64,000 bases of DNA, taken from a virus. Lineage: Duplodnaviria; Caudoviricetes. Where the stretch lies: positions 32,001 through 96,000 of the IMG/VR virus record IMGVR_UViG_2585428004_000001. The stretch is one strand, 5' to 3'. Below the pieces are notes generated by a model that was not told the origin of the DNA, did not search any database, and saw nothing but the letters and a program-made list of their open reading frames with translations. Positions 1 through 59,567 of the stretch are shown here, in pieces (within the stretch, counting starts at the first letter, position 1; the number at the start of each line of letters is the position of its first letter). Made by a program: the position numbers and the translations under genes.

Positions 1-166
1 GTAAGTACATTGGCTTTTTAAAAAGTGTTATTAAAAGTGGTGAATATTTTGATGAACATAAACATCATTTCGAATGGTTCTGTAGAAAATATCAAGAATC
101 TACATCGGCAGGAAACGATGTGTTAGTAAATAATAAAAACTACATTTTATGAAGAGGTGAATCGAA

Positions 167-313
167 ATGCCTTATTTGAATGATAAAGGGTATTGTAGGA
201 AATGCAAAAGAATAACATCTCACAGATTTAGTTTAAAAGTAAAATGTCTTAACTGCAAAACTGAATCTACACAAGAGGAATATCGAAAAGGATTAGAAGA
301 AAAGAAAGATTGA
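167..313 (+). CDS. small Zn-ribbon protein (48 aa; not in ORF track)
   Basis: RBS GAGGTG, ATG at 167, MPYLNDKGYCRKCK...KCLNCKTE; two CxxC motifs. Confidence 0.7.
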   Translation: MPYLNDKGYCRKCKRITSHRFSLKVKCLNCKTESTQEEYRKGLEEKKD

Positions 314-345
314 TAAAATGATTATTTTATGAAGAGGTGAGAAAC

Positions 346-492
346 GTGTACAAAATGATGTTTCATTGGGAGAGACAAGATAAAAAAGGTAAATTCACTG
401 TCGAAGCTTTGACTGTGGAAGATTGTATTGAAAGTGCAGAAAAAGAGATTCAAGCATTTGAAGCAGAGATGGTAGATTGGTATGTTGTCTAG
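346..492 (+). CDS. hypothetical protein (48 aa; not in ORF track)
   Basis: RBS GAGGTG, GTG start, open to TAG at 490-492. Confidence 0.65.
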   Translation: MYKMMFHWERQDKKGKFTVEALTVEDCIESAEKEIQAFEAEMVDWYVV

Positions 493-526
493 TTGAATAA
501 AATAACATTTTATGAGGAGCGATAGC

Positions 527-727
527 GTGGAGACATACGAGTATGCAGGGATATATTTATATCACTATGAATGGTTTCTTATAACCGATGAAAGAAAAGA
601 TATTGAGAGACTAGGAGGCAAATCGGAGTTTATGGGTGTTTTAAATAAGTTGGGTAGAGAAGGATGGAGGCTCTCTATAAAGGTATCTGATGAGCATTAT
701 GTATTGATTAGAAAGGTAATGAAATAA
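527..727 (+). CDS. hypothetical protein
   Basis: Track ORF 512..727; RBS GAGGAG favours GTG at 527. Confidence 0.65.
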   Translation: METYEYAGIYLYHYEWFLITDERKDIERLGGKSEFMGVLNKLGREGWRLSIKVSDEHYVLIRKVMK

Positions 728-747
728 CATTCTTACAAGGTGATAAC

Positions 748-936
748 ATGGAAGATATCGAGCGAAAGATATTACAGAAAACAGCAGATATATGGAATAT
801 GTTTTTAGAGTTAGAGCAAACACATCCTTCTGATATTAATGACTTAGGAAATGCAATTCATGACATTCAGAAGATTATTTCAATAAGAATGGCAAGAAGA
901 ACAGATTCAGATTTATTTGTGACAATTAAAAAATAA
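748..936 (+). CDS. hypothetical protein
   Basis: RBS AAGGTG, 62 aa. Confidence 0.7.
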   Translation: MEDIERKILQKTADIWNMFLELEQTHPSDINDLGNAIHDIQKIISIRMARRTDSDLFVTIKK

Positions 937-963
937 TAAATATATATTTTATGAGGTGATAGT

Positions 964-1157
964 ATGGCAAAGACAGTAGAGATTATTGGTTTGAAATTTC
1001 ATCATGGCACTTATACAGAGGGAGTAACAAAGGTAAACGATTGACACATCTGCGTTGCGTAGCGAACAAAATGATAATCATGCACGATAAAGAAGGGTAT
1101 GTAATTCGTGAGATATTTCTATCAGAAGGATTTATGGCTTCTGTAACACATTGTTGA
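964..1157 (+). pseudogene. disrupted small early gene
   Basis: RBS plus ATG 964, stop at 1042-1044; protein-like frame resumes (MIIMHDKEGYVIREIF...) and ends at TGA 1155-1157 inside the next repeat site. Confidence 0.45.
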
Positions 1158-1184
1158 AACTACATTTTATGAAGGAGCAATATT

Positions 1185-1757
1185 ATGAAAACATTTTTTA
1201 CGAGTGACACACATTTTTGGCATAAGAACATCTTAAACTTCGAAAACAGACCATATTCGTCTGTAGAAGAAATGACAAAAGATATGATTAAGAAATGGAA
1301 CGAGCAAGTTGACGATGAAGATATTATCTATCATTTAGGTGACTTGTGTCTAGGAAACTTTGACCAAACAGTTGATGTTCTAAAGCAACTTAAAGGTAAA
1401 ATCATTTTGATAAAAGGCAACCATGATTATTCAAAGCATTATAAGAAAATCAATGAAATGGGATTATTGCATGAATATCATGAGATTGGAATTACTTTAA
1501 ATTATAACAAACAGCAGATGTGGTTAACTCACTATCCATTTGAGATTGGATTGCGACAACGGAAATGGTCTATTCATGGACACATTCATGGAATGGAGTC
1601 AACTTGGGATAATCAGATTAACGTTGGAGTAGATAGCCCACACTTCAAGCATAAGAAGTTTGGAGAACTAATAGCAATTGAAGAACTGTATGAGTTAATG
1701 GAGGGTCGTTTACCTTCAATAGAAGAAAGATACATGAATCAAAAATGGGATAGATAA
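1185..1757 (+). CDS. calcineurin-like metallophosphoesterase
   Basis: SDTHFWH, HLGD, KGNHD, LTHYP and HGHIH motifs. Confidence 0.9.
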   Translation: MKTFFTSDTHFWHKNILNFENRPYSSVEEMTKDMIKKWNEQVDDEDIIYHLGDLCLGNFDQTVDVLKQLKGKIILIKGNHDYSKHYKKINEMGLLHEYHEIGITLNYNKQQMWLTHYPFEIGLRQRKWSIHGHIHGMESTWDNQINVGVDSPHFKHKKFGELIAIEELYELMEGRLPSIEERYMNQKWDR

Positions 1758-1771
1758 GAGGAGGAATTACT

Positions 1772-2107
1772 GTGTTACAAGTTAATCATCAATACTACTG
1801 TTTAGAAAGTGGATACAATCATGAATCATTTGATTCTTGGCAAGACTTTATCGACACATGGGGAAGCGATGTGGACATGGATTACAACCTATTATTCAGA
1901 TGGGATTGGAAGCCTACTGATGAAATTCAGCCAGAACTTTACCCAGAGCGAGTAGAATTATTCTTCATGCATCAACGAAGAGGAGATTACTCATCTGTAT
2001 TCGTCAAAGTCAGCAAAGCTGATGAAGAGGCTATTCGTAAGTTTATAGCGCCACGATGGGAGCATATGAAGAAGTTGTGGACACCATTTGCAGAGGAGGG
2101 GAAATAA
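1772..2107 (+). CDS. hypothetical phage protein
   Basis: RBS GAGGAGG, 111 aa. Confidence 0.75.
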   Translation: MLQVNHQYYCLESGYNHESFDSWQDFIDTWGSDVDMDYNLLFRWDWKPTDEIQPELYPERVELFFMHQRRGDYSSVFVKVSKADEEAIRKFIAPRWEHMKKLWTPFAEEGK

Positions 2108-2109
2108 CG

Positions 2110-2460
2110 ATGGGAGTAGACTACTATTCTTGCGAAGTTTGTAATGATGCATTTTCAGATGCAGGACATTATGGGCATTGCAGTAAATGTGAAGAGAATT
2201 TATGTGGACATTGTTATGATGAGATGCGTAAAAAGTATGGTGAGATTGGTGAGAATCATGAGAAGTCTGGTTTCTTCAGTGAATGTTCACCAAAGTGCTG
2301 TGATGCGTGTAATGGATTAGAAGAAAGAAATAAAAAGATAGATGATGTAAGAGTATTTGTAAGGTGGGTAGCGGAGGATTTACGTGAAAGTAGTCTATCT
2401 ATCGATGATATAGAAGAAATGGCAAAGGATACTCTAACTATTATTGACGAATTAAAGTGA
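2110..2460 (+). CDS. Cys-rich (Zn-binding) hypothetical protein
   Basis: Several CxxC motifs; RBS GGAGGG favours ATG 2110 over the track start 2056. Confidence 0.7.
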   Translation: MGVDYYSCEVCNDAFSDAGHYGHCSKCEENLCGHCYDEMRKKYGEIGENHEKSGFFSECSPKCCDACNGLEERNKKIDDVRVFVRWVAEDLRESSLSIDDIEEMAKDTLTIIDELK

Positions 2461-2542
2461 CAGAGATTGTTATAAACGATAGTCTTCGTACAAATATTGA
2501 AAGGAATTCAGAGGACTATACACTATTACAAGGGAGATACTG

Positions 2543-3259
2543 TTGATGAGCAAATTAATCGATTTAACTAAAAAGGCAAAGGTTGTCTTAGAGAAGAAAG
2601 AGATTTTTGGTGAGAAAGCGCAAGTTGTATATATTACTGACATTTCAGTTTCTATGAGTAGTCTTTATAGCAACGGAACAGTGCAAGAACTAACTGATAG
2701 ATTACTTGGAATCGGCATGAATTTAGACGTTGATAAGAGTATTGATGTGTTCGCATTTGGAAGGAATGCACATGAGGTTGGCTCTGTGACAGAAGGTAAT
2801 CATCAAGGATTCGTAAACAATGTCTTATTACAGAAAGTGTCTTTAGAAGGCTCAACGAACTATGCAGGAGTAATGGATATGGTTGTTAATAAGTATGGGC
2901 AACCTGTTAAGAAGGGATTGCTATCACGAATTATGGGAAGCAAGCACTCTGAAAAGCCAACTGTACCTACACTAGTATTCTTCATTACAGATGGCGATAA
3001 CTTTGATAAGAGAGAAGCAGAAGAGATTATTCGTAAGTCATCTAATCAAGCAATCTTTTGGCAGTTTGTCGGTATCGGTAGAGCAAGCTTTGACTTCTTA
3101 CAGAAACTCGATGATATGTCTGGGAGATTTTTAGATAATGCTGATTTCTTTAATGTTAATGACCTGCGAAGAATTAGCGATGAGGAGTTCATGGATAGAA
3201 TATTAAATGAGTTCCCAGAGTGGATTAACCAAGTAAGAAACAAAGGCATATTAGAATAG
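2543..3259 (+). CDS. vWA domain protein, TerF/Ter-stress-associated type
   Basis: MIDAS DISVSMS, T in GSTNY, FITDGD, FWQFVGIG, DNADFF. Confidence 0.85.
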   Translation: MMSKLIDLTKKAKVVLEKKEIFGEKAQVVYITDISVSMSSLYSNGTVQELTDRLLGIGMNLDVDKSIDVFAFGRNAHEVGSVTEGNHQGFVNNVLLQKVSLEGSTNYAGVMDMVVNKYGQPVKKGLLSRIMGSKHSEKPTVPTLVFFITDGDNFDKREAEEIIRKSSNQAIFWQFVGIGRASFDFLQKLDDMSGRFLDNADFFNVNDLRRISDEEFMDRILNEFPEWINQVRNKGILE

Positions 3260-3269
3260 GAGGATTAGT

Positions 3270-3428
3270 ATGAATAAAGAGACTTTCAAACAAATATTTA
3301 AAGAATTATTAGAAGATGGAGATATCGCTTTATACGTTGAAAGAGAGGTCGACTACGATTCAATCTCTATAAAAACAGAAGTTCACATCGATGGAGAAAA
3401 GGTTTACGAAAGCAAACAACGTTTATGA
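3270..3428 (+). CDS. hypothetical protein (52 aa)
   Basis: RBS GGAGGA, ATG 3270, open frame. Confidence 0.65.
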   Translation: MNKETFKQIFKELLEDGDIALYVEREVDYDSISIKTEVHIDGEKVYESKQRL

Positions 3429-3437
3429 GGTGATAAT

Positions 3438-3605
3438 ATGCAGTGGGGCGACAAGAATAAACCTAAATACCTAAGTCTTATCTTTGGGAAAGATTGGGAT
3501 AAAGATGATTTCAAATTCTTCTCATTTAGAAAAACACCATTAGGATGGTCAATGAATATTTGGAGATTTGCAATCGACTATGATAATTATAAAAACGTTA
3601 AGTAA
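3438..3605 (+). CDS. hypothetical protein (55 aa)
   Basis: RBS GAGGTG, ATG 3438. Confidence 0.6.
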   Translation: MQWGDKNKPKYLSLIFGKDWDKDDFKFFSFRKTPLGWSMNIWRFAIDYDNYKNVK

Positions 3606-3615
3606 GAGGTAGCAT

Positions 3616-3770
3616 ATGAAAAAGGAGACAAAGTAGTTTTTAATCTAGGAGGAAACGATACGACAGTATGGACTGTATCCAGTGATGAGTTTGTTATGGA
3701 TTCAGTAATATATGTCTATCTAGATGGTTATAGAGGGGAAGTTAATATTAAATTCTTAAAGAAAGTTTAA
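3616..3770 (+). pseudogene. small gene frameshifted in an A5 run
   Basis: ATG AAAAA GGA GAC...; adding one A restores MKKGDKVVFNLGG...KFLKKV*. Confidence 0.5.
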
Positions 3771-3779
3771 GGTGGTTAT

Positions 3780-3908
3780 ATGGCACTTAGTATCTATTGT
3801 TCAGAGTGTGATAGACAAGTAGAAATAACAAAGTTCACCGTTTACAAAGAGGGTAGAGACATCTATGTAGAATGTGACTATTGTAACGATAAGGAGGAAG
3901 TAGACTGA
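3780..3908 (+). CDS. small Zn-ribbon protein (42 aa)
   Basis: CSEC...CDYC, RBS AGGTGG. Confidence 0.6.
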   Translation: MALSIYCSECDRQVEITKFTVYKEGRDIYVECDYCNDKEEVD

Positions 3909-4129
3909 TGTGTGCATGTGGAGTAGATAAGAGAGTAGGATGGCGACAGTGCTGTAAGTCCCTAAAGCTGAAGCCAGTTGGATATATTCCGAATCTTCCA
4001 TCAAAGAGAAAGAGGTTGATTCAATTAGAGAAATTGATAAAGTCACATATTGACCTAGATGTCCCTGTTCATAAAGCAATAATGGACGAATACAACAGTC
4101 TATGTAGTCAATTGAAAGAGAGGTGCTAA
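3908..4129 (+). CDS. hypothetical protein
   Basis: TGATG coupling with the upstream gene. Confidence 0.55.
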   Translation: MCACGVDKRVGWRQCCKSLKLKPVGYIPNLPSKRKRLIQLEKLIKSHIDLDVPVHKAIMDEYNSLCSQLKERC

Positions 4130-4130
4130 C

Positions 4131-4241
4131 ATGTGGAAATTTGCTGAAGAACATCCAATAATGTTTTTTGTTCTTGCGGTCATTGCAATCAATGGAATAT
4201 GCAGTATCATTCAAAGTTTTTGCAGAATTTTCTATTACTAG
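4131..4241 (+). CDS. small membrane peptide (36 aa)
   Basis: RBS GAGGTG; hydrophobic stretch. Confidence 0.55.
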   Translation: MWKFAEEHPIMFFVLAVIAINGICSIIQSFCRIFYY

Positions 4242-4255
4242 AAAGGTGGATTTAG

Positions 4256-4375
4256 TTGAAACAGATATTTAAAGTAGGGTGCATGGCACTATTCACAGTA
4301 TTAATCGTAAACCTAATCCTACTATGTGGAGTAGCATGGTTTGTAATTTGGTGCTTACAACAAATTGGATTCTAA
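4256..4375 (+). CDS. small membrane peptide (39 aa)
   Basis: RBS AAAGGTGG, TTG start; hydrophobic stretch. Confidence 0.55.
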   Translation: MKQIFKVGCMALFTVLIVNLILLCGVAWFVIWCLQQIGF

Positions 4376-4378
4376 TCA

Positions 4379-4420
4379 TTAAACAAAACCATTGCAATGT
4401 TGCTGATAGTGTGCTAAAAT
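4379..4420 (+). promoter_or_regulatory. sigA-type promoter whose -35 (TTGCAA) is part of the AAACAAAACCATT motif
   Basis: TTGCAA 4392-4397, 17 bp, TAAAAT 4415-4420. Confidence 0.8.
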
Positions 4421-4457
4421 GATACTATCAGCAATTTGTTTATGTAGGTGAAAATAT

Positions 4458-5504
4458 ATGAATGCAGAACAGTTAAAAGCGTATCTTGTAGAAGATGTAG
4501 AAAGAATTGAAAAGTTATTAGAAGCCGTTGGTTGTCATCGTATCTGGCGTAGTGGGGACGAGATTCGTTCAGCACCACCAGAAGGTAATAACCACACTGC
4601 AGTATCTGTAAATGTGGATAGTCTCTATTGTAAGTATTACAGAGAAAGAGAGACATTTCGTGGAGACATATTCAAATTGATTGGATTGTTTCGTAACGAA
4701 GGGTTTAAAGAGTCGTTTAGGTTTACACGTAATCTCTTCAACTTAAGTGGCAAGTTCACCAAGGAGAAAGAGAAGCGTGACCCATTGCAAGCCTTTAAGT
4801 CTATAAGGAAGCAGAGTAAGATAATCACTGACTTCGATGATGTTGAACTAACTAAATATGGGAAAGAGGTATTAGATGGATTCATAATGTTGCCTCATAT
4901 GTCTTTGTTCCACGAAGGGATAACGTTGCAGTCTCAAGAGTTCTACGACGTTTGCTATCATCCACAGGATGGCAGAGTTTGCTTCCCTCATTACCATCCT
5001 TTAGACAAGGAAGCTATTGTCGGCATCACTGGAAGGACTTTGAAGAGCAAGGCAGAGATGGAGGCTTTTAATATCCCTAAATACTTCAACTTCATTAGAA
5101 ACTATAAAAAGTCCTACTCGTTATATGGGTTTAGCCATGCAATCGAAGAGATTGAGAAGGCTAAGATGATTGTAGTTGTAGAAGGAGAGAAGAGTGTTCT
5201 TAAACTGCATTCAATGAAGCAGGGATATGCAGTGTCAGTTGGTTCTCATGAGATATCTCCAGTGCAGGTTAATTTAATCTTAAAGTACACATCCATGGAT
5301 ACTGAGGTAGTCGTCGCTTTTGATAGTGATGTTATGAAGGATGAACAGTATCTTATTAACTGCTGTAAGAAGTTCTCTAAATACAGAAAAACTAGCTACA
5401 TCATGGACAATCCTAACTTCCCAATATTAGGTGAAAAGGATGCGCCTGTCGATGGCGGTGTTAAGAAATGGAATCATCTATTGAAATATCGAAAGGAGGT
5501 TTAA
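4458..5504 (+). CDS. DNA primase (DnaG-like TOPRIM)
   Basis: VVVEGEKSV, VVAFDSD, FP...GITGRT; replication context. Confidence 0.85.
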   Translation: MNAEQLKAYLVEDVERIEKLLEAVGCHRIWRSGDEIRSAPPEGNNHTAVSVNVDSLYCKYYRERETFRGDIFKLIGLFRNEGFKESFRFTRNLFNLSGKFTKEKEKRDPLQAFKSIRKQSKIITDFDDVELTKYGKEVLDGFIMLPHMSLFHEGITLQSQEFYDVCYHPQDGRVCFPHYHPLDKEAIVGITGRTLKSKAEMEAFNIPKYFNFIRNYKKSYSLYGFSHAIEEIEKAKMIVVVEGEKSVLKLHSMKQGYAVSVGSHEISPVQVNLILKYTSMDTEVVVAFDSDVMKDEQYLINCCKKFSKYRKTSYIMDNPNFPILGEKDAPVDGGVKKWNHLLKYRKEV

Positions 5505-6364
5505 ATAGATTGTTAGAACACACTTTCAAAACTGGCAGAAGATACTTTACAGATGAACAAGGGGAAGTAGTCTTGATTGAATGTGGAAACTGTAAGGATG
5601 TCAAGGGTTTAAACGAGTTTCCCAGACAGTCTACCTGTAAAAAGACAGGTAGAAGGTCGTTTTGTGAAACTTGTCATAAAAATAGGAAAAAGGCTTATTA
5701 TCAAGAAAACAAAGATACTCTCAGATATTACCATGAAAGAAAAGATGATAAAGAGTATATGGACAAGCGAGCGAAGTGGAGAGAGGACAACAAGGAGCAT
5801 CTTTCAAATTACAACAAGCAATATCATAAAGAAAAGAAGGATAAAGTGTCCAAGAGGAAAAGGGATTATTGTAGCAGGGAAGAGGTAAAATCTCATAGAA
5901 CAGAGTATATGAAGCTGTATCGTAAAACAGAAGATGGTAAAGAAGCTTTTAAACGAGGTATGAGTAATAGGAGGATGGCTAAAAACAATACACCTGTAAC
6001 AATTGACTGCATAGTTGCTATTAAGGACTTTAAGAGTTTATTCGGAAATGTATGTTGTTTTACAGGATTAAAGATACTAGAGGAAAGCACTGAGCATATG
6101 CTACCTGTTACTCGTGGAGGTGGCAACACCGAATACAATATTGCTCCATCTGAATTATCTTTGAACAGGTCGAAGAACAATAGAAATATATTCGACTGGA
6201 TAGAGTTACTTGAAGAGGATATTGATTTTTCATTCTTCTATGAAAGTACTATCCCATATCTCGCAGAGAAGATGGGAGTAAGTATAGAGGAGTATGTATT
6301 ATGGTATGAAGAAAGCTATGAAGAGAAATTGGATGTATATCATATGAGCTTGGTAGAGTCGTAA
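5468..6364 (+). CDS. HNH homing endonuclease
   Basis: Zn-finger CGNC...CETC, basic helical linker, EHMLPVTRGGGNTEYNI...NRSK. Confidence 0.8.
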   Translation: MESSIEISKGGLNRLLEHTFKTGRRYFTDEQGEVVLIECGNCKDVKGLNEFPRQSTCKKTGRRSFCETCHKNRKKAYYQENKDTLRYYHERKDDKEYMDKRAKWREDNKEHLSNYNKQYHKEKKDKVSKRKRDYCSREEVKSHRTEYMKLYRKTEDGKEAFKRGMSNRRMAKNNTPVTIDCIVAIKDFKSLFGNVCCFTGLKILEESTEHMLPVTRGGGNTEYNIAPSELSLNRSKNNRNIFDWIELLEEDIDFSFFYESTIPYLAEKMGVSIEEYVLWYEESYEEKLDVYHMSLVES

Positions 6365-6414
6365 TCTTCTGCCAACAATTATTGTAAAACAAAACCATTA
6401 AAACGAGGTGCGAG

Positions 6415-6621
6415 ATGAACAAAGTTTATATTATTAAATTCCAAATGATATTACCAAATGGGAGCATTGACAAGGAAACCAAAACTAAGTATTTCGAAGA
6501 TAAAGGGGAGTTTATCAAGGAGTACCTTAAATTAAAGAAAGCTTGGTATACCTTGGATTTAACAGTGTACAAGGTAGATAAGGTTACAGAATTTGATATC
6601 GATTCAATTTTAGACTTCTAG
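6415..6621 (+). CDS. hypothetical protein
   Basis: RBS GAGGTG preceded by a motif copy. Confidence 0.7.
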   Translation: MNKVYIIKFQMILPNGSIDKETKTKYFEDKGEFIKEYLKLKKAWYTLDLTVYKVDKVTEFDIDSILDF

Positions 6622-6633
6622 GAGGATAGGGCA

Positions 6634-6789
6634 TTGACTGAGGACGAGGCATGGGTAAGAAGAACTGAGATTAACAAAAGGTTTAAGAGATATGGAGTAT
6701 CTTTTCAACCAAGAAAACAGATAGACAAGCTTGTGGAGAAGCTTCACAAAGAAGAAGTGCTTGTCAAAAGAAAGAGGTTAGCAAAGTGA
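6634..6789 (+). CDS. hypothetical protein (51 aa)
   Basis: RBS GGAGGA, TTG start; stop overlaps the tdk start (GTGA). Confidence 0.55.
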   Translation: MTEDEAWVRRTEINKRFKRYGVSFQPRKQIDKLVEKLHKEEVLVKRKRLAK

Positions 6790-7412
6790 CAAAAGTTTAT
6801 TGGCGTTTTGGCTGTATGGATTCTTCCAAGACAGCACGATTATTAATGGATGCACATGAATATAAACAGCGTGGAGAATTCCCATTGCTATTAAAGCCTG
6901 TGGAGGACACACGTTCATCTAAAGGCACAATTGAAAGTCGAGTAGGGTTGTCTGCTCCATGTATGGATATCGATAAGAGTTTCAACATTCAAGGATATGT
7001 ACATGGGCTATTAAATATGAGAGAGATGATTGCTTGTATCTTCGTTGACGAAGCGCAATTCTTAGCACCATTGCAGGTTGTACAACTTCGTATGATAGCT
7101 GACTTATTCCATATTCCAGTTATCTGTTATGGTCTTAAAACTGATTTCAAAGGGATTATGTTTGAAGGTTCTAAGGCATTGTTTGAACATGCGAATCGAT
7201 TCGAAGAAATTAAGACCATCTGCAGAGAAGAGAACTGTAAGAGTAAAGCGATGTACAACGTTCGATTCTTAGATGGTAAGCCGATGTTTGAAGGTGAAAC
7301 AGTTGTAATTGGTGATACGAAGGAAGAGAAGAACAAGTATTACTATGTACCAAAGTGTTCTAAGCATTTCTTTGAAGACTATATGAAGTTCCATAAATCG
7401 AAGGGAGAATAA
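6786..7412 (+). CDS. tdk: thymidine kinase
   Basis: GCMDSSKT P-loop variant, IESRVG, VDEAQF, YGLKTDF, C-terminal Zn Cys residues. Confidence 0.92.
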   Translation: MTKVYWRFGCMDSSKTARLLMDAHEYKQRGEFPLLLKPVEDTRSSKGTIESRVGLSAPCMDIDKSFNIQGYVHGLLNMREMIACIFVDEAQFLAPLQVVQLRMIADLFHIPVICYGLKTDFKGIMFEGSKALFEHANRFEEIKTICREENCKSKAMYNVRFLDGKPMFEGETVVIGDTKEEKNKYYYVPKCSKHFFEDYMKFHKSKGE

Positions 7413-7413
7413 C

Positions 7414-8682
7414 ATGGCACGTTTAACATATCAGCAGTTAGAGTTAATAAAGGAAAAGATGAACGTTAAGCAAATTTGGAGTTTTAGTAAGATGAGTACA
7501 TTCTCACAGTGTACTTGGGCGTACTTTTTACGTTATATCCAAAAGATTCGTGTGAAAGGTGACAACTGCTATACAGTATGGGGAACAAACTCCCATGATA
7601 TCATACAGGGATTCTATGAAGATGAGTTTACTTATGAAGGCATGCTAGTTGAATTGGAGCAGAGAATCCTTGATTATCTAATGGCAGATGATAAGAAGCT
7701 TAAGTTCCCAAATGATAGTGAATGGGAATCATATATTGCTAACATTCGACATTACTTCACTAATACAGAAGTAATTCCATACAAGGTTGTAAATGAGAAG
7801 CCAGTATTAGCAGAATTCAAAGGTATTGAGAAGTATATCTTCCAAGGCTACATAGACTCCGAATATTATGACGAACAGAATAACTTTGTAATCCTTGATT
7901 ATAAAACATCTTCTATGAGCGGATTTACAGGCAAGAAGTTAATTGAGAAGGCTCAACAGCTTATCATCTATGCATTTGGTGTTAGTAAGTTCCGTAAGAT
8001 TCCTATGGAGAAGATTCGAATCAGATACGATATGATGAAATACTGCAATGTAACATTCATGCAGAAGAATGGAAAAGAGAAGACTTCAAAAGCTGAACGT
8101 AGACTTTGGGTTGCTCATATGGCTAATCAAATTCGAAAAGACCTTCAAGATGTTCCAAAAGAGATTGAGAAGGTTAATAAGGAGATTGCCAAGCTTGAGA
8201 GAAAACTTAATCTAAAGAAGACTACAGAAGAAGAGAAGCCTGCTATCAATGCACTAATTGAAGTAGAGAAGCAGAAGATTGTAGAGATAGAGAAGGATTT
8301 ATTCGATGTAGTTACTATTGATGATATGATTACAACGGCTATCAATGAGAATAACTTAGATAACATGCCTCCATTTGTTAAGAATAAGTATAAAGTTGGC
8401 AATTGCTATATTGATGTTGAATTAACACCAGAGGTTCTTGAAGAGGTGGAATCTCAAATTGTTGATACATTAAACAAAATCATTAAAAAAACTGAAGCGG
8501 AGAATCATGAAGAGGCGTTTACCAGAGGTAAAATCGAGAACAGTGATTCATACTACTGTGTGAATCTTTGTGATATGAGAGACCACTGTAAGTTCTATAA
8601 AGAGTTCAAAGAGCATAATGCTATGTTCTTAGAGAAGGAAGCGCCAAGTGACGAGCAAATCCTTGCTATGCTAGGTTTATAG
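7414..8682 (+). CDS. PD-(D/E)XK nuclease (RecB/Cas4-like)
   Basis: SFSKMSTFSQC, GYID...ILDYKT, QLIIYA, C-terminal Cys cluster. Confidence 0.8.
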   Translation: MARLTYQQLELIKEKMNVKQIWSFSKMSTFSQCTWAYFLRYIQKIRVKGDNCYTVWGTNSHDIIQGFYEDEFTYEGMLVELEQRILDYLMADDKKLKFPNDSEWESYIANIRHYFTNTEVIPYKVVNEKPVLAEFKGIEKYIFQGYIDSEYYDEQNNFVILDYKTSSMSGFTGKKLIEKAQQLIIYAFGVSKFRKIPMEKIRIRYDMMKYCNVTFMQKNGKEKTSKAERRLWVAHMANQIRKDLQDVPKEIEKVNKEIAKLERKLNLKKTTEEEKPAINALIEVEKQKIVEIEKDLFDVVTIDDMITTAINENNLDNMPPFVKNKYKVGNCYIDVELTPEVLEEVESQIVDTLNKIIKKTEAENHEEAFTRGKIENSDSYYCVNLCDMRDHCKFYKEFKEHNAMFLEKEAPSDEQILAMLGL

Positions 8683-16464: not shown

Positions 16465-16850
16465 TGTACTGGTATGAATACAGATTAAGAGGATTTAGCC
16501 TTGGCTGTCAGCCAAAGGACTTTGTAGATGTTAATCATGAGCATGGTAGATTTGGAGCAGTAGCTTACAATCGTGAATTAACAGATGAAGAAGTTGAAAG
16601 ATATGAGTTGACTAAGATTGAGCCAAAGGAGAACAAGTTGAAGGTTCTTGCAAAAGAGATGGTCTGGGTTAACGATGAACTAGATAAAGAGAACCTTTAT
16701 GAATGGGATAGAGATGAGTTTAAAAAGAAAGCCGATGAAATTCAAATGAAGGTTATCTCTGGTAATTATAGCATTGATTTATTTATTCAATACATGAATG
16801 AGTATCGAAATTTGAGCCTTGGAGAATACAATGAATGGATTAAAAGCTAA
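16455..16850 (+). CDS. protein with DarA C-terminal-like (polyvalent-protein) domain
   Basis: YEYRLRGFSLGCQPKDF...RFGAVAYNRELTDEEVERYEL pattern; probable start 16464. Confidence 0.6.
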   Translation: MSLMYWYEYRLRGFSLGCQPKDFVDVNHEHGRFGAVAYNRELTDEEVERYELTKIEPKENKLKVLAKEMVWVNDELDKENLYEWDRDEFKKKADEIQMKVISGNYSIDLFIQYMNEYRNLSLGEYNEWIKS

Positions 16851-16875
16851 TAAAACTCAGATTTTAATAACTATT
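16848..16875 (+). repeat. 28-bp element TAATAAAA-N6-TTTTAATAAYTATT, copy 1
   Basis: TAATAAAA CTCAGA TTTTAATAACTATT. Confidence 0.8.
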
Positions 16876-26675: not shown

Positions 26676-26703
26676 TAATAAAAGTTAAGTTTTAATAACT
26701 ATT
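26676..26703 (+). repeat. 28-bp element, copy 2
   Basis: TAATAAAA GTTAAG TTTTAATAACTATT. Confidence 0.8.
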
Positions 26704-30376: not shown

Positions 30377-31471
30377 ATGAACGTTTCAGTCAAAGGGAAT
30401 GAACAGATTACTAATTTGTTAAACGACTGGTATGTAGAAATTCGTTCAAGGAATATTAACAGTGCTCACCGCTTAAAGTTAGAAATCGACAAAAAGATTG
30501 ATGATGTAGAAAATGACCAGTATCTACTATTATATTACTCTTTATTAGATTTTAGATATCAATATGTAATTGACAACCTAGGTGTCTCTGAAAATAGCTT
30601 TGATAAAATTGAATCCTTTGAAATTCCTACAGATAGCTTTCTATCCTATTATTATCATTTCTTTAAAGCAATTCATGCTAGTGGAATTGGCAACTACATG
30701 ATTGCGAGAGAGCATTTTGATAAGGCTGAGTTACTTTTAGAAACTATACCAGATGAAGTAGAAAAAGCTGAGTTTTATTATAAATTAGGAGCGTTTCATT
30801 TTGACATCTGCGAATCTCTTCAATCATTTAAGTACACAACTAAAGCGAAAGAGATGTTCTTACAACAAGGAAACTATGAGCGTAATATTGGTTTCTGCGA
30901 GAATCTTTTAGGAATGTCATGCGTTAGATTGAATGAATGGGCGTTGGCAGAGGAACATCTTGTTAAAGCAATGGATATATTCCAGAAGCTTAAAGAGGAT
31001 ACGTATATCTTGATGGTTCGCCACAACCTAGGATTTATGTATTCAAGTCAAAACCTTTCGGAATTAGCTATTAGATATTTGTCTGAGGTAACAAGTCAAA
31101 ATCCTAGACATATTAAAGCCCTGTACCTTGAATCCAAAGAACGCTACAAATTAAATGAATTAAACATTGCAGAAGAACTTGCCAATAAAGGGCATAGTAT
31201 TTGTTGTGAATTAGGAAACATAGAGTATAGACATCATTTCTCTATTCTCAGAAATCTTATTAAAGATACATCTGCAGAAGAGTTAGAGACTGTAGTTTTG
31301 GAAGGAGTTTCTTATTTCAAAGACGAAGAATTATATGATTATATCCAAGAAAACCAAGAATATTTAGCTACTAAGTTTTACAAGGAAGATAATCACCTTA
31401 AAGCAAGCAAATACTTCTACCTAAGTTCACAGGCACGGCACAAGTCTAAGGAAAGGGAGGCTTTAAAATGA
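30377..31471 (+). CDS. rap: Rap-family TPR regulator (response regulator aspartate phosphatase)
   Basis: LLNDWYVEIR, LLLYYSLLDFR, YYYHFFKA, EKAEFYYKLG, TPR repeats; RBS favours ATG 30377. Confidence 0.9.
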   Translation: MNVSVKGNEQITNLLNDWYVEIRSRNINSAHRLKLEIDKKIDDVENDQYLLLYYSLLDFRYQYVIDNLGVSENSFDKIESFEIPTDSFLSYYYHFFKAIHASGIGNYMIAREHFDKAELLLETIPDEVEKAEFYYKLGAFHFDICESLQSFKYTTKAKEMFLQQGNYERNIGFCENLLGMSCVRLNEWALAEEHLVKAMDIFQKLKEDTYILMVRHNLGFMYSSQNLSELAIRYLSEVTSQNPRHIKALYLESKERYKLNELNIAEELANKGHSICCELGNIEYRHHFSILRNLIKDTSAEELETVVLEGVSYFKDEELYDYIQENQEYLATKFYKEDNHLKASKYFYLSSQARHKSKEREALK

Positions 31472-48894: not shown

Positions 48895-48927
48895 TTAATC
48901 TAACACCTCTCTTTGCAATGGTTTTGT

Positions 48928-49971
48928 TTAACCTTCTTTGTTTTGATTCTTTTTCTCTCTAAGCTTCTTCATCTTCTCACGAATTTCAGCTTTAGATTTA
49001 GGCTTAACATAGTGTTTCTGAGTAGTAGAAACATCACTGTGATTCAAGAACTCTTGAGCCATTGTTAAATCACCAGTTTCTTCAACAATAAGATTACCTT
49101 TTGTTTTTCGTAAACAGTGAGGATGTAAATCTGTTAATCCCAGAATTGTACCCATCTTTCTTACTCGCATATAGATTGAAGTCTGAGACATCTTTCTATA
49201 CTCTCCATTGTATTTAATGACGAAGAAAGCATCACACTCAAGGTTATCCATGCTCTTGCGCATCTCTAACCACTGCTCAATCAGTTTCTTTGTGCCTTCC
49301 TCAAAGGTAACCTCTACTCGTTTACCACGTTTCTCACGGATGTCTACAAACATCATTTCCTCTAAGTCTAGGGAAGATATAGTTAACTTAGAAATTGCTC
49401 CATTTCTATTTGCTGATTCAATAGCGATATTCCAAATCAATAGGTCTTGGAAGTCAAACTTTCTACCCTTTGGTTTCTGAATATCTTCTACAAGAACCTT
49501 GGAGATAACATCAACTTGCTCTTGGGTTAAGAAATAGTGGTTAATAAGGCGCTCGTCATTAGCACCCTTCATTCTATCTAGTTTCTTGTCAAAAGGATGA
49601 ATGTCAATAATTCCCCTCTTAACTGCCCATACATAGTATGTAGAAACAGCAGAAAGCTTTGTGTTAATAACCTTCTTGTTATTTCCAAGCGTATCTTGAC
49701 AGAATCCAATGAACCCTTCCATGATATCTACGCCATTCTCCATTAACTCATCGTCATGAATGAAGATGTTCTCCCATTCTTCTTCTAAGTAAACAAGAAA
49801 TTGATTAAAGTAGTTTTGATACACTTTGTACGTTGTATCTTTTACATCTTTATTTTTAATGATGTTCGACTTCAGATACTTGTCGTAAGCCTTTATATTC
49901 TTAGGGTTAATTCTAGCTTTCTTTTCTTTTGTAAAATATCGCTTATAAACCCTCTTTAGTTGTTCTGCCAC
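48928..49971 (-). CDS. tyrosine recombinase (XerC/D/integrase family)
   Basis: R (SANRNGA), K (EKRGK), HxxR (HPHCLRK), H (LNHSD), Y (TQKHY) all present; SAM-like N-terminal domain. Confidence 0.9.
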   Translation of the reverse strand: MAEQLKRVYKRYFTKEKKARINPKNIKAYDKYLKSNIIKNKDVKDTTYKVYQNYFNQFLVYLEEEWENIFIHDDELMENGVDIMEGFIGFCQDTLGNNKKVINTKLSAVSTYYVWAVKRGIIDIHPFDKKLDRMKGANDERLINHYFLTQEQVDVISKVLVEDIQKPKGRKFDFQDLLIWNIAIESANRNGAISKLTISSLDLEEMMFVDIREKRGKRVEVTFEEGTKKLIEQWLEMRKSMDNLECDAFFVIKYNGEYRKMSQTSIYMRVRKMGTILGLTDLHPHCLRKTKGNLIVEETGDLTMAQEFLNHSDVSTTQKHYVKPKSKAEIREKMKKLREKKNQNKEG

Positions 49972-51265: not shown

Positions 51266-51293
51266 TAATAAAATCCATATTTTAATAATTATT
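51266..51293 (+). repeat. 28-bp element, copy 3
   Basis: TAATAAAA TCCATA TTTTAATAATTATT, overlapping the holin stop codon. Confidence 0.8.
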
Positions 51294-59539: not shown

Positions 59540-59567
59540 TAATAAAATCGTGATTTTAATAACTATT
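59540..59567 (+). repeat. 28-bp element, copy 4
   Basis: TAATAAAA TCGTGA TTTTAATAACTATT. Confidence 0.8.

Follow-up and report, generated by a model that had tools for sequence, protein, structure and literature searches.

A TAAAA-N6-TTTTA dyad at gene junctions of SPbeta-like Bacillus phages as a possible crossover point between small accessory genes

Integron attC sites are imperfect palindromes of 57 to 141 bp with R and L boxes, which fold as single strands with extrahelical bases, and pdif sites are 28 bp long, with 11-bp XerC and XerD arms of defined sequence. Other repeated elements have been described in phages. The promoter-early stem-loops (PeSLs) of T4-type phages are presented as elements of about 50 bp, each made up of a sigma-70 promoter and a stable terminator hairpin that contains G/C (PMC2839356). 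In Cluster K mycobacteriophages, the start-associated sequence (SAS) is given as an asymmetric 13-mer that includes the Shine-Dalgarno sequence (SD), and the extended start-associated sequences (ESAS) as having 17-bp arms and a spacer of 4 to 13 bp (PMC3203893). The SPBRE of phage SPbeta are reported as the operators of MrpR, a repressor with a recombinase fold (PMC10516654), and a putative attP with an 11-6-11 layout is described directly after the structural recombinase gene of Tyrovirus (PMC9703825). The element considered here is a dyad of two A/T arms around a six-base centre, TAAAA-N6-TTTTA, which came to notice as an array of six sites separating tiny genes near the left end of a 64,000-nucleotide stretch of viral DNA (the window). 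The window covers bases 32001-96000 of the 119,986-bp virus record IMGVR_UViG_2585428004_000001 (G000), which has terminal repeats and 36% G+C and whose gene content is SPbeta-like. Positions below are those of the window unless given as genome positions.

The six array sites are best described as local members of a junction dyad, TAAAA-N6-TTTTA, of SPbeta-like Bacillus phages. When TAAAA-Nx-TTTTA was scanned with x from 2 to 11 in G000, the related genomes G001, G002, G003 and G004, and Bacillus phage 2S-4, 86 copies (78 of them intergenic) had a spacing of 6 nt, against 3 to 14 at each other spacing, and the same arms everted or in direct orientation gave no comparable N6 peak in these six genomes. 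SPbeta (NC_001884) holds 34 copies at N6 and 0 to 3 at other spacings. In G000, which has 10 canonical copies, the pattern with a spacing of 5 to 7 nt occurs 11 times, 10 of them between genes, against 2.95 expected, and the excess was confirmed for each genome by shuffling. The inverted arms around a core of about 6 bp that an earlier, sequence-only reading of the window had proposed are thus borne out by the N6 peak as a rigid 6-nt centre; the motif is not special to the array, being an intergenic element found throughout the genomes of SPbeta-like phages. Copies usually lie 0 to 8 nt past a stop codon and 11 to 25 nt ahead of the next start, and about one-third are elsewhere: past stops with no gene close behind, directly ahead of promoter -35 boxes, between convergent units and in the minus-strand late region. 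The 120 sites carry 89 different centres, six of them shared across the three lineages; none is repeated within one genome, an absence without statistical weight because each genome has so few sites. Identical copies of 16 to 30 nt were found in otherwise unrelated contexts and genomes, and tiny genes with two or three dyad junctions in a row are also present in 2S-4, Tsamsa and MrDarsey. Within the searchable literature and its main texts, including those of the Tsamsa, Tyrovirus and SPbeta life-cycle papers, the dyad was not found described as a junction element of SPbeta-like phages; the terms "palindrom" and "intergenic" do not occur in the Tsamsa and Tyrovirus papers and have unrelated uses only in the SPbeta life-cycle paper.

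In the array, all six strings quoted by the sequence-only reading are present, each followed by a ribosome-binding site (RBS), at 133-150, 313-330, 497-513, 721-738, 936-952 and 1154-1170. Their start-to-start distances are 180, 184, 224, 215 and 218 bp, close to the 180 to 220 bp that had been estimated. An SD lies 2 to 4 nt past every site and an ATG or GTG 14 to 17 nt past it, and at five of the six the stop codon of the upstream gene abuts or overlaps the site (150-152, 311-313, 725-727, 934-936 and 1155-1157), in agreement with the earlier description. In the 64-kb window, strict ATAAAA-N4-7-TTTTAT occurs 3 times against 0.24 expected (at least 3 in 0 of 100 shuffles) and TAAAAW-N3-5-WTTTTA 5 times against 0.65 (at least 5 in 0 of 100). 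With the SD included, the longer unit forms a direct repeat of about 28 nt at 133-160, 313-340 (82%) and 1153-1180 (75%). The looser right half alone (ACATTTTATGA, at most one mismatch) is not enriched, with 7 matches against 4.0 expected and 11 of 100 shuffles reaching 7.

The layout ATAAAA-N5/6-TTTTAT had been claimed for all junctions, and the claim holds in part. Sites 1 and 2 alone have the canonical 5-6-5 geometry, as exact intergenic dyads in a phage of SPbeta-type gene content; the other four are degenerate relatives, site 3 through a 5-nt spacer and sites 4 to 6 through eroded left arms. Site 1 (133-150) reads ATAAAA-ACTACA-TTTTAT, with TAAAA-N6-TTTTA at 134-149, and site 2 (313-330) reads ATAAAAT-GATT-ATTTTAT, a 7-4-7 layout equal to 5-6-5; both are followed by the SD GAAGAGGTGA. 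Site 3 (497-513), ATAAAA-TAACA-TTTTAT, is near-canonical, with an off-peak spacing between its TAAAA and TTTTA arms. Site 4 (721-738) is the eroded copy ATGAAATAACATTCTTAC, holds the stop codon of the third cassette gene and precedes the SD AAGGTGA; site 5 (936-952) is the eroded copy ATAAATATATATTTTAT, followed by the SD GAGGTGA. Site 6, taken at 1153-1170, reads GTTGAA-ACTACA-TTTTAT, shares the centre of site 1 and precedes a metallophosphoesterase gene. The array is a modest example of the dyad family, with two intact and four eroded copies. Its expected continuation to the left proved mostly wrong: the next four junctions on that side, ahead of the genes with starts at genome 31034, 31363, 31554 and 31817, have an RBS and no motif, and a single canonical copy is found 1.3 kb to the left of site 1, at genome 30837.

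Comparison with relatives indicates that the genes beside the dyads change and the dyads stay. The region between the TerC, vWA and metallophosphoesterase genes is highly mosaic in relatives, with site-bearing junctions kept and adjacent genes differing; between the conserved gene cl5 and the phosphoesterase gene there are five cassettes in G000 and one in G003. Where site-bearing junctions are breakpoints, the homology switch falls within the site or at its edge: upstream-gene homology continues through the site, and that of the downstream gene sets in at the spacer or right arm; at site 6, for instance, the match to the G003 metallophosphoesterase locus starts within the site (genome 33160). 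The ACTACA site lies between different genes in G000, G001, G003 and G004, and this centre also recurs beside different genes in G007 and before MrDarsey gp99. An identical 6-nt centre was found in 35 inter-genome site pairs against 2.85 expected (maximum 10 in 300 shuffles), and in 21 of the 35 neither 76-nt flank is similar. Furthermore, when 2S-4 was compared with G002, a homology block ended within 20 nt at 9 of 19 dyad junctions against 15 of 136 others (p<0.001), or 9 of 76 when nearby junctions served as the control (p=0.001). A segment of 837 bp with three open reading frames lies exactly between the dyads at 2S-4 32722 and 33559 and is missing in G002, with flanks 96% identical; G002 has a single hybrid dyad there, with the switch within the shared 8 nt AATTTTAT, which points to a recent indel. 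Additionally, a metagenomic homologue of cassette gene 4, 74% identical, has ATAAAA-TGATGT-TTTTAT at its end, overlapping the stop codon (L111:3160-3190), so that in this contig the dyad moves together with the 3' terminus of the gene.

The explanation we favor, to which we give a probability of about 0.45, is that the dyad may be a protein-bound DNA joint between genes whose conserved sequence doubles as a short-homology crossover point. In the array, the dyads divide five tiny genes, most of them orphans, within an early or replication operon that is transcribed as one unit; each is placed between a stop codon and the next RBS and would be bound by a symmetric (dimeric) protein. Being the only conserved stretch among fast-changing accessory genes, the dyad would thereby double as a crossover point. 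Recombination inside it would replace the gene on one side and retain the site, and would be most effective between copies with identical 6-base centres. Such exchange would run more likely via the general short-homology recombination of the phage than via a dedicated integrase, and a Sak4-like annealing protein encoded nearby could be part of this route. Should the dyads prove to be crossover joints, the turnover of small accessory genes in large temperate Bacillus phages without breakage of operons would have an explanation. Since SPbeta, a genetically tractable prophage of B. subtilis 168, carries 34 dyads, the idea is directly testable by ordinary genetics and binding assays.

A number of observations weigh against this explanation. 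The 35 same-centre pairs amount to about 20 independent families, because many derive from three site families in four close relatives. The reciprocal comparison of G002 with 2S-4 was not significant (3 of 11 dyad junctions against 18 of 141 others), and the 837-bp indel joined dyads of different centres via only 8 nt of identity, which fits slippage or microhomology deletion and lends no support to a same-centre rule. The clade of G000 shows no breakpoint excess at dyads (7 of 67 against 203 of 1661, in ten ordered, non-independent pairs), nor does the looser N5-7 pattern in this clade (7 of 48 against 155 of 952); between L012 and L014, 8 of 10 breakpoints fall at dyad-free junctions, and dyad junctions are not significantly associated with small genes. 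With two of its six sites intact and four eroded, the array may be able to do without any function that the sites have. In a covariation test on 78 non-redundant canonical sites, with pairing set against column composition, the central spacer pair covaries (31 against 19.8 expected, p=0.002); it cannot pair in a hairpin, and the signal may be inflated where orthologous sites are counted repeatedly. A possible binder of the dyad, a 91-aa HTH_3 (Cro/XRE-type) protein whose gene (genome 31076-31351; L118:11076-11348) belongs to the same run of small genes and lies 0.8 kb to the left of the array, was rejected because it has no homologue in the six relatives that carry dyads. The sequence-only reading had offered operator sites for a dimeric regulator as its alternative to cassette shuffling; such a regulator would agree with the fixed spacing, the strand symmetry and the absence of covariation in pairing. 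Shuffling itself stands as far as small genes behave as replaceable and sites are kept beside unrelated neighbors. Breakpoints mapped to the sites, as had been expected, in 2S-4 against G002 and in the 837-bp indel; the G000 clade shows no excess, and most breakpoints between L012 and L014 lie elsewhere. Gene exchange at the sites is partly supported, backed by the wider-family comparison and not by G000's own clade.

The element could instead act in RNA, as the site of a translational regulator or as an endonuclease processing site 5' of a strong SD that stabilises the downstream fragment, gene swapping being a side effect. The placement would suit this, as every array cistron has its own copy 2 to 4 nt ahead of a strong SD, the layout of per-cistron translational control, and most family members lie between a stop codon and the next SD. 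Phage SP82 is said to offer a precedent, with an SD-like 5' stabiliser after the intercistronic cleavage. In Cluster K, the start-associated sequences, which have inverted repeats upstream, are proposed to act on translation (PMC3203893). However, the six sites fold weakly as RNA (-0.4 to -3.9 kcal/mol, z -0.77 to +0.96) and no more stably than shuffled sequence, and no compensatory pairing emerged: in the covariation test, flank pairing stayed at composition level for 4 of 5 positions (p 0.14 to 1.0), position -3 being nominally over-paired (41 against 32.5 expected, p 0.019). About one-third of the family is not beside an SD, and the spacer has no strand bias, its composition being symmetric when oriented by transcription (A 196, T 196, C 135, G 109). 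Rigid spacing, invariant arms and orientation independence are more readily explained by a symmetric DNA-binding protein than by an RNA element, and we infer that the dyad is a putative double-stranded site of a dimeric protein; action at the RNA level seems to us quite unlikely. A still simpler view is that AT-rich sequence between stop and RBS happens to look palindromic in a genome of 36% G+C, where TAA or TGA stops are frequent in left arms, the right-half motif alone is not enriched and four of six array sites are imperfect. This is contradicted by the N6 peak (86 against 3 to 14 in the six genomes, 34 against 0 to 3 in SPbeta), by the shuffles and by the identical 16- to 30-nt copies in unrelated contexts and genomes, and we find it hardly credible.

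A dedicated system of site-specific cassette exchange would go further than the joint that we favor. In such a system, a protein with a tyrosine-recombinase fold would bind the AT arms and exchange strands across the 6-base centre, and same-centre copies would recombine like heterospecific lox or dif-type sites, with accessory genes swapped at fixed addresses. Inverted arms with a fixed 6-nt centre, 89 different centres in 120 sites with none twice per genome and six across three lineages, and same-centre copies that persist with unrelated flanks are what it would predict, as are the breakpoints enriched at dyads in 2S-4 against G002 and the one exact site-to-site indel. Moreover, G000 has two PF00589 proteins and an MrpR-like recombinase-fold protein, and a recombinase gene lies next to the tape-measure gene in both G000 and 2S-4; the Tyrovirus paper calls the role of gp50, a recombinase in this position, unexplained (PMC9703825). 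Yet the arms of the dyad span 5 to 8 bp and are purely A/T, and no recombinase gene adjoins the array. The arms of known recombinase sites measure 11 to 13 bp. In Tsamsa and 2S-4, the structural recombinase gene is directly followed by another palindrome, which contains GC and has a 6-bp core, and G000 has no dyad at the corresponding place. Additionally, the clean indel joined different centres with the switch in an arm, the G000 clade lacks a breakpoint excess, and unrepeated centres carry no statistical weight with so few sites per genome. We therefore regard a dedicated system as rather unlikely. Its fullest form, which we hold to be just as doubtful, would give each SPbeta-like genome some 10 to 35 lox-like joints with common AT arms, each with its own 6-base address, read by an extra protein of tyrosine-recombinase fold. 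If it were true, co-infecting or resident relatives would swap accessory and anti-defence genes only between joints of the same address, a phage-borne cassette exchange distinct from integrons, and the six-site run would be a stack of slots, partly decayed. What probability remains belongs to other readings, such as a self-copying mini-element.

The array separates small genes on the plus strand, one unrelated gene in each of four intervals, as the sequence-only reading had stated for all, and two overlapping frames in the fifth. The gene upstream of site 1 encodes 111 aa and stops at 150-152. Cassette gene 1 (167-313) encodes a 48-aa, zinc-ribbon-like protein with CxxC...CxxC, which has sub-threshold Pfam and PHROGs matches only and no tblastn match in six related genomes. 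Cassette gene 2 (346-492; 48 aa, with a GTG start 7 nt past the SD) is an ORFan, as is cassette gene 3 (527-727; 66 aa), whose sole match in a search of 5.8 billion proteins was itself and which has no phage tblastn match. Cassette gene 4 (748-936; 62 aa) belongs to a widespread family of small phage proteins (phrog_13916). Cassette 5 (964-1157) consists of frames at 964-1044 (26 aa) and 1041-1157 (38 aa), for which no Pfam or PHROGs family match and no homologue was found, and may be a frameshifted, decaying gene. None of the five cassettes has a tblastn match in 2S-4, G002, G001, G003, G004 or G007, and their import from 2S-4-like phages was rejected on this ground; all are singletons in an all-against-all blastp, and the array genes were rejected as paralogues. 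The conserved right border of the array is the metallophosphoesterase gene (1185-1757, plus strand; PF00149, E 4.7e-10), 84 to 88% identical in G001, G003 and G007.

Transcription signals were considered and rejected as explanations of the dyad. For sigma-A promoters, positions 1-8000 hold 33 promoter-like sites against 32.0 expected, none at a constant position in the sites; for terminators, there is no G/C stem, and 3 terminator-like sites stand against 2.9 expected, none within the array. A genome-wide promoter class was likewise rejected: in five relatives the extended motif WACATTTTATGARG (at most two mismatches) does not exceed its reversed control in frequency.

Four canonical dyads lie further along the window. 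Those at 16851-16866 (centre CTCAGA) and 26679-26694 (GTTAAG) belong to a 28-bp subfamily, TAATAAAA-N6-TTTTAATAACTATT, and those at 51269-51284 (TCCATA, under minus-strand transcription) and 59543-59558 (TCGTGA, a centre also present in phage 2S-4) are in the late region. The 28-bp subfamily was seen at 16848-16875, 26676-26703, 51266-51293 and 59540-59567 and at genome 30833-30860; its extra tail is asymmetric, and it keeps one fixed genome orientation although transcription flips between the two arms.

Just upstream of the array are encoded an AAA_24 (Sak4-type) protein, a DnaB helicase and TerC, and downstream, according to Pfam, vWA-TerF-like and metallophosphoesterase proteins. G000 also encodes an MrpR-like recombinase-fold protein, NrdI, a 3D-domain protein, a DHFR-dUTPase fusion and a Rap-like protein with tetratricopeptide repeats (TPR), and its tyrosine recombinase gene adjoins that of a 2476-aa tape-measure protein. 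The SPbeta record (NC_001884) has the same kinds of genes, its yorG being annotated as a Sak4-like single-stranded DNA annealing protein. The genes for a TerC-family membrane protein (genome 29399-30055), the metallophosphoesterase (1185-1757) and a vWA-TerF-like protein (2546-3259) bracket the variable region, a tellurite-resistance-type set inside the phage replication module; its order varies among relatives, and 12 kb separate the phosphoesterase and vWA genes in G001. A 364-aa protein encoded at 30377-31468, with a RapH_N domain and TPR repeats, resembles Rap/AimR receptors and suggests a peptide-signalling lysis-lysogeny switch. At the nucleotide level, a megablast of positions 1-6000 against phages gave no match, and two 17-mer scans of viral contigs gave mainly chance matches. 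Contigs of three sequencing runs, one of which may have yielded this DNA, showed no joints and no differences against the window; two of them cover 2506-3841 only, and the contigs are uninformative on rare circles or deletions.

The two PF00589 matches in G000 (genome 11288-11782 and 81000-81530) are separated from the array by about 21 and 49 kb, and no serine recombinase was found. The recombinase gene beside the tape-measure gene (48928-49971, minus strand) keeps an HxLR motif and has the C-terminal motif TTQKHY, and the other PF00589 protein (genome 10886-11929) has HTMK in place of HxxR, its activity being uncertain. Outside the window, a 406-aa MrpR-like protein (genome 12809-14029; L127:12809-14026) matches MrpR_N_CB (E 1.2e-18) and MrpR_C_cat (E 1.1e-7), is conserved in 2S-4, G002 and at least two of G001, G003 and G004, and is probably the master repressor of this phage.

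As the putative attP of Tyrovirus the dyad was rejected: the palindrome at that place in Tsamsa and 2S-4 is different and contains GC, and G000 has no dyad there. SPBRE, reportedly first described by Lazarevic in 1999, are likewise repeated intergenic elements of the same phage group, and G000 encodes an MrpR-like protein. The motif common to all seven examined MrpR-bound SPbeta promoter regions is, however, AAAAAATATGTAT, a 13-mer rich in A that is asymmetric rather than palindromic. The dyad is unlike it, does not match the asymmetric element of about 15 bp in MrpR-bound promoters, and was rejected as an SPBRE or MrpR operator. A second asymmetric repeat, with the 13-bp box AAACAAAACCATT (AAACAAAAGTATTGCA in relatives), occurs at 4379-4420, 48925-48940 and many other places in the window and at genome 28975 and 38390; it often supplies the UP or -35 part of sigma-A-like promoters and resembles AAAAAATATGTAT, which makes it a better candidate than the dyad for the operator of the MrpR-like protein. 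Like SAS and ESAS, the dyad is repeated, lies at the starts of a subset of genes, and is conserved within a phage group; the mycobacteriophage elements are also described as partly accompanied by upstream inverted repeats and of unknown function (PMC3203893), but the spacing of the dyad is a rigid N6, and dyads also occur away from gene starts. With dif, pdif and other Xer sites it has in common inverted arms around a 6-bp centre and exchangeable modules between sites, and the centre could address the partner; the fixed 6-bp centre is a property of the family and, within the array, of sites 1 and 2 only. In contrast to those sites, its arms are conserved over 5 to 8 bp and are all A/T, and the exact indel lies between different centres.

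The integron, to which the sequence-only reading had likened the array, is matched in layout: small, co-oriented, promoterless genes with replaceable neighbors and a site at or past each stop codon, in five plus-strand units that each follow a site and an SD, with no internal terminators. The array has, however, no adjacent recombinase gene such as intI, no attI and no Pc, with promoter-like sites at chance level; in place of attC it has an AT dyad of 16 to 18 bp with weak folds that occurs genome-wide, including the late region. It is therefore not an integron, and the layout of co-oriented promoterless cassettes is all that the two share. From PeSLs the dyad differs in being a rigid 16-bp AT element inside an operon, without a promoter signal or stable hairpin. 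Indel ends in repeats, which characterize PeSL regions, were seen in 2S-4 against G002 and at background level in the G000 clade. As described for T4-type phages (PMC2839356), PeSLs show indels and replacements between close phages at the motifs, apparently through short homology and with no recombinase identified. In function the analogy is close: the dyad may resemble them in this, and it is likewise a short repeated intergenic motif that flanks small, mostly orphan genes in hyperplastic regions.

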